Program-made: the position numbers and the translations under genes | Notes under the pieces: generated by a model | The model's input: only the letters and a program-made list of their open reading frames with translations | Told to the model about the DNA's origin: nothing | Databases searched by the model: none | IMG/VR virus record: IMGVR_UViG_2695420804_000009 | Coordinates: 1-4,838 of that record | DNA from: a virus | Taxonomy: Duplodnaviria; Heunggongvirae; Uroviricota; Caudoviricetes | Length of the DNA stretch: 4,838 nt | Direction: 5' to 3' (one strand) | Shown: in pieces, positions 1 through 4,838 of the stretch | Layout: every line of letters starts with the position of its first letter | How positions within the stretch are numbered: the stretch's first letter is position 1

Positions 1-34
1 CACGCTGAAAATGCCGGCCTTTGAATGGGTTCAT
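1..34 (-). CDS. tnpA: IS26 transposase (Tnp26), 5' end only; first 11 codons MNPFKGRHFQR, remainder outside window
   Basis: Minus-strand ATG at 34..32, translating leftward as M-N-P-F-K-G-R-H-F-Q-R, the N-terminus I recall for the IS26/IS6 transposase. Absent from the ORF track because it is truncated by the window edge. Confidence 0.8.
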   Translation of the reverse strand, partial: MNPFKGRHFQR

Positions 35-97
35 GTGCAGCTCCATCAGCAAAAGGGGATGATAAGTTTATCACCACCGACTATTTGCAACAGTGCC
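1..97 (-). mobile_element. IS26: IS26 (IS6 family) partial copy: terminal ~97 bp including the 14-bp terminal inverted repeat; element continues beyond the window start
   Basis: The reverse complement of 1..97 reads GGCACTGTTGCAAATAGTCGGTGGTGATAAACTTATCATCCCCTTTTGCTGATGGAGCTGCAC-ATG-AACCCATTCAAAGGCCGGCATTTTCAGCGTG, which matches my recollection of the IS26 left end (IR GGCACTGTTGCAAA followed by the tnp start). The terminal IR occupies + strand 84..97 as tttgcaacagtgcc. Recalled, not searched. Confidence 0.85.
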
Positions 98-153
98 TCC
101 CCCTGAATCAGCATTATGTTGATTATCCCTGCAAGCAGACAAATACCGTTATT

Positions 154-225
154 TTGTGTGAATAACGACACAACTGCGCTTAGCTGTTTGTCAGGCACAA
201 TCACTTCAACATAGGGCGAAGCCTA
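154..225 (+). promoter_or_regulatory. Putative P2-type late promoter (P_F-like) with TGT-N12-ACA activator dyad
   Basis: TGT(155-157)-N12-ACA(170-172) lies within the imperfect palindrome TTGTGTG-N6-GACACAA (154..173). The dyad centre is ~85 bp upstream of the FI start codon, consistent with the roughly -55 placement of the Ogr/Delta site in P2/P4 late promoters. No strong -35 is present, as expected for activator-dependent promoters. The -10 is not confidently assigned (weak candidates around 197..214). Confidence 0.5.
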
Positions 226-248
226 ATCCAATCAGGAGGTTCGCCACT

Positions 249-1421
249 ATGGCTCAGGATTACCACCACGGGGTGCGCGTTGTTGAAGTCAACGAAGGCA
301 CCCGATCTATTACCACGGTGAGCACCGCCATCGTGGGTATGGTCTGCACGGGCGATGATGCCGATGCAAAAATGTTTCCTCTTAATAAACCCGTGCTGAT
401 CACTGATGTGCTGACTGCCAGCGGTAAAGCGGGTGAGTCAGGTACTCTGGCCCGTTCGCTGGATGCCATCGCTGACCAGGCAAAACCCGTGACCATTGTT
501 GTGCGTGTGCCGCAGGGTGAAACGGAAGACGAAACCACGACCAATATCATCGGCGCAGTGACTGCTGAAGGTAAAAAAACAGGTATGAAAGCCCTGTTAT
601 CTGCCCAGTCACAGCTCGGCGTTAAACCGCGCATTCTCGGCGTGCCAGGCCACGACACCAAGGCGGTAGCTACTGAGTTGCTGAGCGTGGCGCAACGCCT
701 GCGTGGATTTGCTTACCTGTCAGCGTATGGCTGCAAGACAGTGCAGGAGGCGATCACTTACCGCGAAAACTTCAGCCAGCGCGAAGGGATGCTGATCTGG
801 CCTGACTTTACTGGTTGGGACACGGTGCTGAATGCCGAAGCAACGGCATATGCCACCGCCCGTGCGCTTGGTCTGCGCGCCAAAATTGACGAGCAGACCG
901 GATGGCACAAAAGCCTGTCCAACGTGGGCGTGAACGGTGTCACCGGAATTTCTGCAGATGTGTTCTGGGATCTGCAGGACCCGGCAACCGATGCAGGTCT
1001 GCTGAACCAGAACGACGTCACCACGCTTGTGCGTAAAGACGGTTTCCGCTTCTGGGGTTCCCGCTGCCTGAGTGATGACCCGCTCTTTGCCTTCGAAAAC
1101 TACACCCGCACGGCGCAGGTGCTGATGGACACGATGGCAGAAGCACACATGTGGGCGGTGGATAAACCGCTTAACCCGTCGCTGGCCCGCGACATTATCG
1201 AAGGTATCCGCGCCAAAATGCGCAGCCTGGTCAGTCAGGGCTATCTCATTGGTGGTGATTGCTGGCTGGATGAGTCGGTGAACGACAAAGACACGCTGAA
1301 AGCCGGAAAACTCACCATCGACTACGACTACACGCCAGTGCCGCCACTTGAAAACCTGATGCTGCGTCAGCGCATCACCGATCAGTACCTGGTGAATTTC
1401 GCCAGCCAGGTCAGCGCGTAA
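249..1421 (+). CDS. FI: P2-like phage tail sheath protein (gpFI family)
   Basis: 390-aa ORF preceded by a strong SD (AGGAGG at 234..239, 9 nt spacer). The translation is closely similar along its length to P2 gpFI as I recall it (e.g. [107 protein letters not shown]). Confidence 0.93.
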
Positions 1422-1430
1422 GGGGACAAC

Positions 1431-1946
1431 ATGGCATTACCACGCAAATTAAAACACCTGAACCTGTTTAACGACGGGAACAACTGGCAGGGGATCGTTG
1501 AGTCGCTGACGCTGCCGAAATTTACCCGCAAATATGAGAAGTATCGCGGCGGCGGAATGCCGGGTGCGGTGGATGTGGATCTGGGGCTTGATGACAGTGC
1601 GCTGGACACAGAATTTTCCATTGGTGGTACTGAATTGCTGCTGTTTAAACAGATGGGTAAAGCCACGGTGGATGGCATCCAGCTGCGCTTTACCGGCTCT
1701 ATTCAGCGTGACGATACCGGGGAAGTGCAGGCCGTGGAGCTTGTCGTGCGTGGACGTCACAAAGAAGTGGATTCCGGCGAGTGGAAGACGGGCGAAAGCA
1801 ACACCACCAAAGTGACCAGTACCAACAGCTACGCGAAGCTGACCATCAATGGTGAGGTGCTCTATGAAGTGGACCTTATCAACATGGTGGAAATTGTGGA
1901 CGGTGTGGACCTGATGGAAGCGCACCGCAACGCCCTCGGCCTCTGA
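1431..1946 (+). CDS. FII: P2-like phage tail tube protein (gpFII family)
   Basis: 171-aa ORF starting 10 nt after the FI stop, with SD AGGGGA at 1421..1426. The translation resembles P2 gpFII (M..PRKLK, TLPK.TRK.E.YRG.GM.G, VDLGLDD.AL, RDDTGE..AVE.V.RGR.KE, IN.VE, HR...GL). Confidence 0.93.
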   Translation: MALPRKLKHLNLFNDGNNWQGIVESLTLPKFTRKYEKYRGGGMPGAVDVDLGLDDSALDTEFSIGGTELLLFKQMGKATVDGIQLRFTGSIQRDDTGEVQAVELVVRGRHKEVDSGEWKTGESNTTKVTSTNSYAKLTINGEVLYEVDLINMVEIVDGVDLMEAHRNALGL

Positions 1947-1957
1947 TATATCTGAAC

Positions 1958-1975
1958 GGCGCGGGATACCGCGCC
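1958..1975 (+). other. GC-rich hairpin in the FII-E intergenic region (7-bp stem GGCGCGG/CCGCGCC, 4-nt loop)
   Basis: ggcgcgg (1958-1964), loop gata, ccgcgcc (1969-1975). It is followed by agaaccc, with no T-tract, so it is not a canonical intrinsic terminator. It could be an RNA stability or processing element, or a translational modulator between the tube and chaperone genes. Confidence 0.4.
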
Positions 1976-2000
1976 AGAACCCAATTGACAGGACAGCAAA

Positions 2001-2285
2001 ATGAGCGATAAGCAGACTGAAAAGACCATTCAACTGGATACCCCCATCAAGCGCGGTAAAACAGAAATCACCGAAATTGTGCTGCGTAAACCGCAGTCCG
2101 GTGCGCTGCGCGGTACACGCCTGCAGGCCATTATGGATATGGATGTAAACGCGATGATGACCGTGATCCCCCGCATCTCCAGTCCGGCACTGACTGCACA
2201 GGAAATTGCAGAGATGGACCCGGCAGATCTCACTGCCATGTCGGTTGAGGTTGTCACTTTTTTGTTGAAGAAGTCGGTGCTTGCC
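2001..2285 (+). pseudogene. E: P2-like gene E (tail assembly chaperone), 3'-truncated; the E' extension is lost
   Basis: The gpE-like N-terminus plus the conserved slippery heptamer are retained, and phage-like sequence ends within ~2265..2295. After a -1 shift the reading frame runs only 26 codons ([13 protein letters not shown]...) before a stop at 2342..2344, far short of the ~55-codon E' extension expected from P2. Confidence 0.7.
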
Positions 2286-2516
2286 GGTTTACCGTATCAG
2301 GCAGAGTTACAGGTTCCGCAGGATATCGCGGTGATTGGCTATGACGATATCGAACTGGCAAGCTTTATGACGCCACCATTAACCACTATCCACCAACCGA
2401 AAGATGAACTGGGGGAGCTGGCGATTGATGTACTCATCCATCGGATAACCCAGCCGACCCTTCAGCAACAACGATTACAACTTACTCCGATTCTGATGGA
2501 ACGCGGTTCGGCTTAG
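2001..2516 (+). CDS. Chimeric 171-aa ORF: N-terminal ~90 aa of a phage tail assembly chaperone (gpE-like) fused in frame to the C-terminal ~75 aa of the ribose operon repressor RbsR (LacI family); probably a non-functional fusion
   Basis: SD AGGA at 1990..1993. The N-terminal part (..[43 protein letters not shown]..) has the gpE / Phage_E character. The C-terminal part ([73 protein letters not shown]) is a LacI-family effector-domain C-terminus consistent with RbsR. No LacI-type N-terminal HTH is present. Confidence 0.6.
2258..2264 (+). other. Programmed -1 ribosomal frameshift slippery site T_TTT_TTG (E/E' recoding signal)
   Basis: TTTTTTG lies in the X_XXY_YYZ register relative to the E frame (codons ACT TTT TTG), at codons 86-88 of E. 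That is the position and sequence type described for the P2 E/E' frameshift. Confidence 0.6.
2286..2516 (+). pseudogene. rbsR: rbsR 3' remnant (ribose operon repressor, LacI family), missing the DNA-binding domain and most of the effector domain
   Basis: The C-terminal LacI-family sequence ends ...LMERGSA* at 2516. Its 35-bp convergent overlap with the hsrA 3' end (2482..2516) matches the rbsR/hsrA arrangement as I recall it in E. coli K-12. The 5' boundary is approximate (junction somewhere in 2265..2295). Confidence 0.8.
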
Positions 2517-3909
2517 ATTTACGCTGTCTTTTGATCAAATTATTACCATCGGTTGTTTTCAGAAGCATGAACATTGCTGCTGAAGCAACAGTAATAATGC
2601 CCATCGTGATAAACGTATAGTGGAATTGTTCGACAGTCGTTGTGCCTTCCATCCCTTCATAAACGCGAAGGACGGCCGCACTTACAGCAACGCCTAAACT
2701 AATCGACAGTTGCTGCGTGACCGCCAGAACACTGTTACCGCTGCTGGCGTTGTCATCGGTCAGATCGGCAAGTGTGATGGTATTCATCGCGGTAAATTGC
2801 GTCGACATAGCCATCCCTAATATAAACAACGGCAAGATCAGCATCCATATCGCCATTGCCGGTGATTGCAAAGAGAACTGAGCGATCATTAGCCCAATAA
2901 TCACCGTGATCCCCACTAACGTATGGCGATAGCCCAGACGACGTAAGACTTGGGTAACCATCGATTTTGCAATAATGGAACCTAACGCTGTCGGTGCCAT
3001 CATACAGCCGGCAATAAACGCCTGATAACCAAATCCTACCTGTAACATCAATGGCATAAGGAACGGTACACAACCGGTCCCCAGACGGGTTGCAATATTG
3101 CCTACGATACCGATCGAGAAAGTGCGGGTTTTAAATAAATCTAATGAAATTAATGGGTTTGGCGTGTGTCGCGCATGGAGAATATAGAGAAGCAGTAACC
3201 CGATGCTGGTGACAATTACCGTCAAGGCAATCCAGCTGGCGACAATCTTTTCCCCGAATAGCTCTATTCCGCTTGAGAAGAGAACAAGGCTGAGGCCAAA
3301 CAGCAAAAAGCCAGTGATATCGAATCTGCGTCGTGCGGTGGTGAAATTGGGCATATGTTTGCGCGCGTAAAGAAGGCCCGCAATACCTATGGGGATATTG
3401 ATTAAAAATATCCAGTGCCAGGTTGCCCAGGTGACCAGCACGCCGCCAAGAACGGGGCCTAAAATTGGCCCCACCAGACCCGGCATGGCGACAAAATTCA
3501 ATACTGGAAGAAGTTCATTACGAGGATAAGCGCGCAGTAAGGCCAGCCGAGCAACAGGCATCATCATTGCGCCGCCTATCCCCTGAATAACCCGGAAGAC
3601 AACCAGCTGTGGTAGCGAATTAGAAAGTGCGCAGGCCAGAGAACCCAATGTGAACAGACTCACGGCAAGGGTAAAAATGCGACGCGTACCGAAGCGATCG
3701 GCTAGCCATCCGCTTACCGGAATAAGCATCGCCACCGTCAGCGTATAACTGATGATGGCTGATTGCATCGCGAGAGGAGAACGATTAAGGCTATGAGCGA
3801 TTGCGGGTAAGGCGGTATTCAGAATAGTGGCATCAAGTGCCTGCATGAAGAAGGCCATCGCCGCGATCCACGGCAAACCCGCCATACTGCGATTCTTTTT
3901 ATCGCTCAT
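2482..3909 (-). CDS. hsrA: MFS (DHA2-type) efflux transporter HsrA/YieO
   Basis: 475-aa ORF, highly hydrophobic with many predicted TM segments. The N-terminus [35 protein letters not shown]... and the overall sequence match my recollection of E. coli HsrA (YieO). SD AGGA ~6 nt upstream of the start on the minus strand. Synteny with yieP and rbsR supports the call. Confidence 0.93.
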
Positions 3910-3931
3910 TCAATGTCCTGTTATCGGGTTG

Positions 3932-4624
3932 TCACTTATCAGGTGAGCGTAGCAGCGCCTGACAAGCTTTAAATGCCGCGTCGCCATCGCTTTGGACAAT
4001 CGCATCGACAATCGCCTGGTGCAGATCCAGCTTTATCACTGTGTCGCTGGTAATTGACGTGAAGTAAGTGTGATAAACCGAATGGAATAGCGAGGCGAAT
4101 GAGGTCAAAAACGGATTGGCGCTCATTTCATAGATATGCTCATGCCAGGCCATATCGACTTCGATCCAGCGTTCACGGCGAAAGTTCTCTTTTAATGCCG
4201 CCATTTCGGCCATTAACGTATTGAGATGCGCCTTCTGTTCCGCGGTGCCAACCGTTGCAGCCAGTAGGCAAGCTTGCGGCTCCAGACAGATACGCATAAC
4301 CAGAAAGTGATCGATGACCTGATGAAAGTTCTCTTCTGTCATCCACCAGGTAAGCAATTCCTGATCAAGAAAATTCCAGTTTGATTGTGGCATGACCCGG
4401 GTACCAATTCGCGGTCGCGGTAAAACCATCCCTTTTGCCGTTAACGTTTTGACCGCTTCGCGTACCGCTGTACGACTCACTCCAAATTGCTCGCCCAGCT
4501 CAATCTCACCAGGCAAAATGGTGCCGGGTTCATATTCACCTTTTAAGATGCGTTGCGCCAGCTTCTCAGCCAGAACATACGAAAGGTTTTTCTGTGCAGC
4601 TAACTGTTGTGCGCTTAAAGGCAT
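3932..4624 (-). CDS. yieP: GntR/FadR-family transcriptional regulator YieP
   Basis: 230-aa ORF with an N-terminal GntR-type winged HTH (..GEYEPGTILPGEIELGEQFGVSRTAVREAVKTL...) and a FadR-like C-terminal domain. SD AGGAAG 8 nt upstream of the ATG on the minus strand. Ends 22 bp upstream of the hsrA start, suggesting a yieP-hsrA operon. Confidence 0.9.
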   Translation of the reverse strand: MPLSAQQLAAQKNLSYVLAEKLAQRILKGEYEPGTILPGEIELGEQFGVSRTAVREAVKTLTAKGMVLPRPRIGTRVMPQSNWNFLDQELLTWWMTEENFHQVIDHFLVMRICLEPQACLLAATVGTAEQKAHLNTLMAEMAALKENFRRERWIEVDMAWHEHIYEMSANPFLTSFASLFHSVYHTYFTSITSDTVIKLDLHQAIVDAIVQSDGDAAFKACQALLRSPDK

Positions 4625-4734
4625 TACTAATCTTCCTTTTTCTTTTTATTCCTCCTTAGTATGCCACCAGGAAGTGTGATTACGGTTGCAAAAACGGCAA
4701 ATTGCTTGTTTTATGGCACATTAACGGGGGTTTT

Positions 4735-4749
4735 GCTGAAAAAATGCGC
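4735..4749 (+). promoter_or_regulatory. Putative Fis binding site I of the rrn P1 promoter (centre about -71)
   Basis: gctgaaaaaatgcgc is a 15-mer with G at position 1, C at position 15 and an A-rich centre. Its centre at 4742 is 71 bp upstream of the inferred P1 start at 4813, matching the known Fis site I position of rrn P1 promoters. Confidence 0.45.
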
Positions 4750-4754
4750 GGTCA

Positions 4755-4813
4755 GAAAATTATTTTAAATTTCCTCTTGTCAGGCCGGAATAACTCCCTA
4801 TAATGCGCCACCA
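4755..4813 (+). promoter_or_regulatory. rrnC P1: Ribosomal RNA operon P1 promoter (rrnC P1 by synteny): UP element, -35, -10, GC-rich discriminator and +1
   Basis: AGAAAATTATTTTAAATTTCCT (UP element, 4755..4776), -35 TTGTCA (4777..4782), 16-bp spacer, -10 TATAAT (4799..4804), discriminator GCGCCACC, +1 A at 4813. This is essentially identical to the classic rrnB P1 core sequence. The transcript leader runs to the window end. Confidence 0.9.
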
Positions 4814-4838
4814 CTGACACGGAACAACGGCAAACACG

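Follow-up and report, generated by a model that had tools for sequence, protein, structure and literature searches.

The window analysed in this study, a stretch of 4,838 bp, is a mosaic of three sequence types: the end of an IS26 element (1-97), a part of a P2-like prophage (98-2294) and a part of the Escherichia coli chromosome (2295-4838). The contig is a one-off, strain-private rearrangement built from well-known parts, and no new kind of element. An ordinary insertion of IS26, together with an independent illegitimate joint between the phage gene E and rbsR within a larger rearrangement in one E. coli isolate, has in our judgement slightly better than an even chance of being the correct explanation. 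According to this explanation, IS26 would have entered, in the ordinary manner and with an 8-bp duplication of TCCCCCTG, the very end of the coding sequence for a Hin-like invertase in a resident P2-like prophage of the Wadgaonvirus type. Afterwards, gene E, broken after codon 98, would have become joined to rbsR, broken before codon 258. We infer this order of events, and the joining would have been independent of IS26, the phage integrase and the invertase. The joining may have been an illegitimate recombination that involved no more than 1 nt of microhomology, either by break-and-join (alternative end-joining) or by a replication template switch.

Anatomy of the window

An exact look-up of the fusion protein encoded across the phage/chromosome joint identified the window as the entire short-read contig CXZN01000059.1 of the E. 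coli draft assembly GCA_001284765.1. Both contig ends fall in genuine repeats, IS26 on the left and rrnC on the right, as expected of a true genomic path. The preliminary description of this DNA had proposed three separate origins for the mosaic. This was borne out for IS26 by an exact string, for the P2-like prophage by an alignment with 0 mismatches and for the rbsR region by 100% identity. Its left border (97/98) was correct, whereas the right border, given as ~2285/2286, was wrong and actually lies at 2294/2295.

Aligned with the P2-like prophages of three further E. coli assemblies (L009, L010 and L016), the phage segment (98-2294) had 0 mismatches; its identity to Escherichia phage 500465-1 (Peduoviridae/Wadgaonvirus) is 99.8%. 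A dyad of the pattern TGT-N12-ACA, found once in 98-248, is located at 155-172 on the plus strand, 77 bp upstream of the sheath ATG. We take this late-promoter element, from what is known of P2 late promoters, to be a putative Ogr/Delta-type activator site. The following genes are all on the plus strand. The tail sheath gene (249-1421; the P2 FI homologue) is intact and encodes 390 aa with the Pfam domains PF04984, PF17482 and PF22671. The tail tube gene (1431-1946; the P2 FII homologue), for which relatives have the annotation 'phage major tail tube protein', is also intact (171 aa; PF04985). Of the tail assembly chaperone gene E (PF10109, Phage_TAC_7), the three-way alignment showed codons 1-98 of 100 at 2001-2294. 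The -1 frameshift slippery site T TTT TTG of gene E is present at 2258-2264, but after it the rbsR sequence replaces the E' reading frame. The frameshift product is predicted to be an aberrant protein of 114 aa in the window, compared with the native 145 aa in L009. The contig contains neither the E' extension nor T, U, D and ogr.

The order of the sheath, tube and chaperone genes is the P2 order FI, FII, E, and is syntenic with phage 500465-1 and the prophages. Both the Pfam domains and the prophage alignments, in which sheath, tube and E homology was present without a mismatch, agree with the earlier identification of a P2-like late-operon fragment (promoter, FI, FII and most of E). The segment thus resembles prophages of the 500465-1/Wadgaonvirus type in gene order and, from the invertase 3' end through gene E, in nucleotide sequence (99.8-100% identity). 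Those prophages, however, are ~33 kb long and reside at ybjL, ssrA or sad, while only 2.2 kb is contiguous with the joint here. Their operon runs on into E'-T-U-D-ogr, whereas the operon in the window is cut 9 nt before the end of gene E and joined to rbsR.

The chromosomal segment (2295-4838) is 100% identical to the region from the 3' part of rbsR through hsrA and yieP to the upstream region of rrnC in many complete genomes. The rbsR portion (2295-2516, plus strand) comprises codons 258-330 and the stop codon (nt 772-993). It has neither the HTH domain nor most of the sugar-binding domain and does not qualify as a member of the RbsR (LacI-family) regulators; judged from its sequence, it is a gene remnant and not a functional RbsR. 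On the minus strand, hsrA (yieO; RefSeq label mdtD), encoding an MFS transporter, is intact at 2482-3909 and overlaps the 3' end of rbsR by 35 nt. The yieP gene for a GntR/FadR-family regulator (3932-4624, minus strand) is likewise intact according to its annotation and its identity to complete genomes. The string TTGTCA...TATAAT was found at 4777-4804 (plus strand) and is, from established knowledge, presumably the rrnC P1 promoter. The contig ends 34 nt past this promoter, at the start of the rRNA operon repeat; the 16S rRNA gene is located at this distance in complete genomes.

The IS26 end and its insertion site

Positions 1-97 (minus strand) correspond to the IRL end of IS26, and the contig stops within the repeat. 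All 97 of the 97 nt are the same as in the annotated 820-bp IS26 copies of FORC_081 and 23CRST010, and the initial assignment to IS26 was therefore correct. At 84-97 lies the 14-bp terminal inverted repeat, which reads TTTGCAACAGTGCC on the plus strand and is the reverse complement of the IS26/IS6-family tip repeat GGCACTGTTGCAAA. The first 34 nt of tnp26 are on the contig, with the ATG at 34-32 on the minus strand, and the gene runs off the contig edge.

IS26 directly precedes the final 9 nt (98-106, plus strand; Ser-Pro-stop) of the gene for a Hin-like DNA invertase, and base 98 corresponds to nt 559 of 567 of this gene in the alignment to intact prophages. A plain insertion with an 8-bp duplication predicts a read-through protein consisting of the invertase followed by WALLQS, which we searched for by exact protein look-up. 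The predicted protein exists (CTT17182.1/WP_053887046.1). For it to arise, TCCCCCTG must also be present on the left side of IS26, and the sequence at 98-105 (plus strand) would then be the right-hand copy of the target duplication. CTT17182.1 shares its accession series with the fusion protein CTT12394.1; the read-through protein has a single GenBank accession, numbered about one genome's worth of proteins after the latter. Its source is probably a neighbouring assembly of the same submission, not GCA_001284765.1 itself. The 8-bp duplication is therefore shown for the lineage and may be presumed for this isolate.

From the existence of this protein it follows that, in this lineage, prophage sequence extends leftward beyond IS26. 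Moreover, solitary IS26 copies with 8-bp duplications and without cargo are found in the same invertase gene of the complete genomes FORC_081 and 23CRST010. In view of these two facts, the proposal that IS26 marks the other side of the event that produced the rbsR joint is not supported. Nor is there support for resistance cargo beyond the left edge of IS26, and the 4.8-kb contig carries no second IS26, translocatable unit or resistance cargo. The IS26 in the window is similar to a simple chromosomal insertion in its exact end, in its insertion point within a gene that is also struck in those two genomes, and in the predicted duplication that the read-through protein backs; it is different in that the contig covers just 97 nt of it. 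Judged from these sequence features, IS26 seems to have inserted in the ordinary way, duplicating 8 bp of its target, and does not seem to be the far end of the phage/rbsR event.

Five independent IS26 ends cluster within about 750 bp at the serine-invertase gene of this prophage. Activity of IS26 around this prophage is also seen in a rearrangement junction in E47 and in an adjacent deletion in IAI39. The prophage family is a common one, and if neither chance nor selection but the element's choice of target is behind the clustering, it would inform where IS26 lands in chromosomes.

The joint between gene E and rbsR

The three-way alignment placed the phage/chromosome joint at 2294/2295, where it separates codon 98 of gene E from codon 258 of rbsR. 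The joint is blunt: base 2294 (G) fits both parents, so that the microhomology is at most 1 nt, and there are no inserted bases. As a result, a chimeric in-frame ORF of 171 aa (E 1-98 and RbsR 258-330) is present at 2001-2516 on the plus strand, deposited as CTT12394.1, 'tail E family protein'; its in-frame state is by chance. None of the 5,426 complete E. coli genomes spanned the joint, and it was not found among plasmids. The fusion protein forms a singleton cluster from one contig among about 15 billion proteins.

The joint is located inside gene E, about 5.1 kb before the ogr gene and attR of intact prophages, and no att was observed. The earlier view that it is not an integrase product is supported. 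We inspected the junction sequences for a P2 att core, which was rejected; the joint is not at the prophage end beyond ogr. No IS26 terminus is present at 2294/2295, where one would be expected if IS26 had generated the joint by adjacent deletion, inversion, cointegrate formation or a translocatable unit. A quasi-site for a Hin/Gin/Cin-type invertase was also rejected, since the 26 bp around each break contain no half-sites of the AAACC/GGTTT type around a 2-bp crossover.

These features are shared with spontaneous microhomology-poor joints, such as those formed by RecBCD/LigA alternative end-joining or template switching, which have 0-1 nt of homology, no site motifs and no filler, and are unique. 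The mechanism suggested here is read from the junction sequence only. Another related case is that of the Lenski long-term lines, in which IS150-adjacent rbs deletions reportedly cause IS-mediated loss of ribose catabolism. There, too, rbs is disrupted alongside mobile DNA and an Rbs-negative or deregulated phenotype is expected. Those deletions, however, end at the IS itself, while the rbsR joint has no IS end and IS26 is 2.2 kb away.

There is another interpretation, in which the joint would be an assembly chimera. Two unrelated contigs, one with IS26, sheath, tube and E and the other with rbsR, hsrA and yieP, would have been falsely joined by the assembler, the scaffolder or the gap-closer, and the prophage and rbsR would really be intact. 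The sequence comes from a single draft short-read assembly, the joint occurs in no other genome or protein set, independent assemblies included, and the rearrangement that it implies is awkward to explain. On the other hand, the parents share no k-mer at the joint that is long enough for a mis-join in the assembly graph. They have in common just 1 nt and the string GTTTACC, which is 9 nt out of register between the two breaks. The middle of gene E and the middle of rbsR are both unique sequence, giving no reason for contigs to end there in a normal genome. No Ns or filler are present at the joint, and the contig ends exactly where real repeats force breaks. We consider a chimera quite unlikely.

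It would also be conceivable that IS26, together with 2.2 kb of flanking phage DNA, was transferred into the rbs locus in an IS26-dependent manner. Two versions can be considered. In the first, one-ended, ISEcp1-like read-through transposition would have extended to a cryptic IS26-like end at 2280-2293. In the second, homologous pairing with a second IS26 near rbs would have been followed by illegitimate sealing of the far end, in the form of either homology-anchored illegitimate recombination or break-induced copying with a template switch. The foreign block starts exactly at IS26 and has an arbitrary far end, as is characteristic of such a transfer, and IS26 is demonstrably active around this prophage (E47, IAI39). 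Furthermore, half of the 14 nt that end at 2293 (CTTGCCGGTTTACC) agree with the IS26 repeat (7 of 14), the terminal CC included. A 7/14 match, however, arises at 4.3% of the window positions and is not significant. Known IS26 products have IS26 at each new joint, but the joint at 2294/2295 has none. If the fragment had been copied, 98-2294 would be present twice, and the contig should have been interrupted at 2294. With an 8-bp duplication at the joint, five variants of an RbsR'-IS26 read-through protein were predicted, one of which would run off a contig end; none of the four variants with a complete ORF is in the protein collection. IS26 (IS6 family) is not known to move other than by two-ended cointegrate formation. 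Judged by title and abstract, none of the papers listed in a literature search is about one-ended transposition by IS26, and a further search gave nothing relevant on illegitimate joints between IS26 and prophages. A transfer in either version thus appears unlikely. A combined proposal, that IS26 skipped its own IRL, used the cryptic end CTTGCCGGTTTACC (2280-2293) in gene E and carried 2.2 kb of prophage DNA into rbsR in the ISEcp1-like manner, and that, separately, the clustering at the invertase gene is a real target preference of IS26, is taken as a whole very improbable.

Location of the prophage and extent of the rearrangement

In the closest relatives examined, the prophage is located at ybjL, in some others at ssrA or sad, and never beside rbs. 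The zero-mismatch relatives of the phage segment are ybjL-resident prophages. The exact sheath protein was found on 354 contigs, and the prophage adjoined ybjL in all 10 contexts that were read (10/10). The invertase allele of the read-through protein was seen in ybjL prophages only (8/8 loci). These facts suggest that the phage segment would have originated from a prophage at ybjL.

Another course of events would be a simple local deletion. If a prophage with the same late genes had been present just upstream of rbs, one deletion from gene E to rbsR would suffice and leave the single-copy path found on the contig. Lost in this step would have been T, U, D, ogr, attR, rbsDACBK and the beginning of rbsR. 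Late modules of nearly identical sequence are found at no fewer than three attachment sites (ybjL, ssrA and sad/yneJ), so that the integration module is exchangeable. We examined this by BLAST with a 15.7-kb composite query (late region and kup-rbs), requiring one place that covers at least 80% of it. The late region was colinear with and within about 8 kb of kup-rbs in 0 of 5,426 complete E. coli genomes. In addition, the exact-match relatives and the invertase allele all indicate ybjL, and the distance from oriC to rbsR is only about 13 kb. A local deletion therefore seems quite improbable.

A single reciprocal inversion of ~1.2 Mb between rbsR and gene E of an ssrA-resident prophage, whose orientation is opposite to that of rbsR, would also be one event in which all sequence stays single-copy, and the observed joint has exactly the polarity of such an inversion joint. 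The inverted segment, however, would include oriC and result in replichores of roughly 25:75. The predicted reciprocal product, RbsR(1-257) followed by Thr-Ala, has no exact match in the protein collection, and when RbsR 1-257 served as a homology query to find such a chimeric N-terminal partner, ordinary RbsR clusters and generic partial forms only were returned. The ssrA-type prophages, moreover, have a different invertase allele and show 3-5 differences from the window. Such an inversion is very improbable.

We therefore return to the ordinary IS26 insertion followed by an independent illegitimate joint. Because ybjL and rbs are more than 1.5 Mb apart, a larger rearrangement has to be assumed, of which the joint is one breakpoint and the other joints are on other contigs. 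If the ybjL prophage and rbsR point the same way, two breaks cannot give a viable product in one step, since oriC would be lost with a deletion of 3 Mb, and the explanation thus needs at least three breaks or a copied fragment. The absence of RbsR(1-257) followed by Thr-Ala from the protein collection counts against this explanation as well. The larger rearrangement might have consisted of several breaks or of the translocation of a prophage segment.

Under the two-event explanation, RbsR and E/E' would have been destroyed, the sheath and tube genes severed from T, U, D and ogr, and the E-RbsR ORF created by accident. The isolate would probably be RbsR-negative and possibly Rbs-negative, with a defective prophage. 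The practical value is small, in that a strain-private structural variant is put on record. With IS26 at one end and an rRNA operon at the other, a short contig can seem more exotic than it is, and the label 'tail E family protein' of CTT12394.1 masks a chimera.

The gene E-rbsR joint and its surroundings

The proposed mosaic of three origins was borne out once its right border had been moved about 9 nt to the right. Positions 1-97 match annotated 820-bp IS26 copies exactly at their IRL end, and include the 14-bp inverted repeat (84-97) and the tnp26 start codon (34-32, minus strand). The adjoining stretch, 98-2294, is indeed that of a P2-like prophage: it showed 0 mismatches to prophages of three other E. 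coli assemblies, just 1-5 mismatches to several further prophages, and 99.8% identity to Escherichia phage 500465-1 (Peduoviridae, Wadgaonvirus). Its three ORFs have sheath (PF04984), tube (PF04985) and tail chaperone (PF10109) domains; a TGT-N12-ACA dyad typical for P2 late promoters lies at 155-172, and the T TTT TTG slippery site of the tail chaperone gene at 2258-2264. The tube gene is separated from gene E by a stretch with a GC-rich inverted repeat (GGCGCGG GATA CCGCGCC, 1958-1978); no T-run comes after the repeat, which is kept in intact prophages. Dozens of complete genomes match positions 2295-4838 at 100% identity over rbsR(3')-hsrA-yieP and the region upstream of rrnC. The gene at 2482-3909 carries the RefSeq name mdtD ('multidrug transporter subunit MdtD'); by its position beside rbsR and yieP it is hsrA/yieO, and the label looks like a name carried over between paralogous MFS transporters.

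Exact look-up of the 171-aa ORF (2001-2516) identified the window as the entire 4,838-bp contig CXZN01000059.1, which belongs to GCA_001284765.1, a draft E. coli assembly. The left edge is 97 nt into IS26. The right edge is 34 nt past the rrnC P1 promoter (TTGTCA...TATAAT, 4777-4804), at the start of the rRNA operon repeat; 16S rRNA comes next at a matching distance in complete genomes. Since both edges fall in repeats, they are ordinary repeat-induced contig breaks.

In a three-way alignment the right joint was placed at 2294/2295: phage identity extends through 2294 and rbsR identity starts from 2294 or 2295, with one G at most common to both parents. Gene E, of 100 codons, is kept up to codon 98 and rbsR from codon 258; the 171-aa chimera that results is in frame, for which the chance is one in three. 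The chimera (CTT12394.1) was deposited as 'tail E family protein', an annotation that hides its 73 C-terminal, RbsR-derived residues. Because the joint lies about 5.1 kb short of the ogr/attR end of the prophage, integrase was not its maker, in agreement with the preliminary description. No IS26 terminus was found at the joint; the best IS26-repeat match, over the 14 nt ending at 2293, is 7/14, and such a match occurs at 4.3% of window positions. Neither Hin/Gin/Cin-type half-sites in the flanks nor filler bases at the joint were found. The joint thus has the marks of illegitimate recombination, as had been suggested, with homology of at most 1 nt and without att, IS26 end, invertase half-sites or filler. 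The string GTTTACC is present in both parents near the breaks (window 2286-2292; rbsR nt 756-762, or 7986-7992 of L003, a locus with rbsR), but its register is 9 nt away from that of the joint itself. This match is probably a coincidence, but it could be the trace of a slipped template switch.

Lacking the HTH domain and the greater part of its core, RbsR would be non-functional. E is truncated, with an aberrant frameshift product predicted at 114 aa instead of 145 aa, and the sheath and tube genes would be cut from T, U, D and the activator gene ogr. We infer that the prophage is thereby defective for tail assembly, and that the late promoter, with ogr split off, has no cis-linked activator gene.

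Origin of the joint

Across 5,426 complete E. coli genomes no place spans the right joint. Among about 15 billion proteins the fusion protein is alone in its cluster and comes from a single contig. The prophage is common: in 823 genomes, 80% or more of the 1-2600 query is covered by one place. With the exact sheath protein, it adjoins ybjL in 10 of 10 contexts; it is found at ssrA in A28 and 500465-1, and near sad/yneJ in IAI39. Late-gene modules 97.3-99.9% identical occur at no fewer than three attachment sites (ybjL in L006/L007, ssrA in L018/L002 and sad/yneJ in the IAI39 locus), which suggests that the integration module is freely exchanged in this prophage family.

The simplest origin, local deletion starting in a prophage that had integrated next to rbs, was examined with a 15.7-kb composite query of the late region and kup-rbs, so that adjacent pieces would merge into one place. 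No genome place covered at least 80% of the composite, which makes this origin unlikely. Hence the joint links DNA that is elsewhere more than 1 Mb apart.

The joint rests on one short-read assembly and might be an assembly chimera. This is unlikely, however: a de Bruijn mis-join requires a shared k-mer, the parents have none in common at the joint, and mid-E and mid-rbsR are not contig-end sites in a normal genome. The joint is more likely real. All its components are well known; the sole new item is a private junction in one draft genome.

Gene E of a ybjL prophage is co-oriented with rbsR, as we take from the genome loci and the K-12 map. This orientation implies either a deletion-type joint of a 3-Mb arc or a duplication-type joint of the complementary 1.6-Mb arc. 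The deletion was rejected as not viable, since the arc contains oriC. The contig is unbranched through the joint, so that both sides should be single-copy, which argues against the duplication. A ybjL prophage would therefore need three or more breaks, or else the translocation of a segment. For an ssrA prophage, a single 1.2-Mb inversion would fit the polarity of the joint, but it includes oriC and would leave the replichores strongly unbalanced. The protein collection has no exact match to the reciprocal product RbsR(1-257)+TA, and a homology search yielded no chimeric partner for RbsR 1-257. Insertion of IS26 plus 2.2 kb into rbsR with an 8-bp duplication is another possible origin, but the four expected RbsR'-IS26 read-through variants are not in the protein collection.

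L009, a prophage locus in an assembly of the same accession range as the window's (GCA_001285585.2, CYDX01000001.1, 1-9300), has a phage segment identical to that of the window. Its ybjL prophage breaks off at the invertible segment of the tail fibre and continues in the yeh/mlrA/btsSR locus. Such a junction resembles that of a large inversion, for which recombination of two P2-like prophages or action of the invertase may be responsible.

IS26 at the prophage invertase gene

Base 98, at the left joint, is nt 559 of the 567-nt Hin-like invertase gene located 5' of the sheath gene in intact prophages. A conventional IS26 insertion here would duplicate TCCCCCTG and thereby extend the invertase into the IS26 IRR, ending ...ESP-WALLQS. 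The predicted 194-aa protein, for which the invertase allele was taken from the zero-mismatch prophages, was present by exact look-up (CTT17182.1/WP_053887046.1, on a 2,002-bp contig); the same tail on two other invertase alleles was found for neither. CTT17182.1 is the sole GenBank copy and stands about 4,800 numbers after CTT12394.1 in the same CTT series, so that its source is probably a neighbouring assembly of the same submission. FORC_081 and 23CRST010 each have a solitary IS26 in the same gene, with 8-bp duplications TTGCAACG and GTTGAACG, respectively, and without cargo. We therefore concluded that the insertion was ordinary in this lineage, with an 8-bp duplication; very probably, but not provably, it was so in the isolate itself. 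The ordinary insertion, the read-through protein and the solitary copies contradict the preliminary description, in which IS26 marked the opposite side of the event that joined phage and rbsR. Resistance cargo to the left of IS26 likewise found no support.

In this P2-like prophage family, a span of about 750 bp that takes in the invertase gene and its immediate upstream side has five independent IS26 ends. Besides the window's end (84-106, invertase nt 559), these are in FORC_081 (L004 11278-12097, about nt 49), 23CRST010 (L005 11278-12097, about nt 360), E47 (L022, about 2278-3097, some 130 nt upstream of the gene) and IAI39 (L023, about 8278-9097). The IAI39 copy is 10 nt from the window's site in opposite orientation, and the truncated tail-fibre gene there indicates an adjacent deletion. 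The E47 copy joins truncated gabP to a prophage tail-fibre remnant (L022 2096-3204), and is thus at a rearrangement junction whose orientation fits IS26-mediated inversion rather than deletion. From about 0.64 chromosomal IS26 copies per genome, over 829 genomes and 800 bp, roughly 0.09 insertions would be expected, a rough figure that ignores the uneven distribution of IS26, against 4 in complete genomes. The invertase region may be a target hot spot of IS26.
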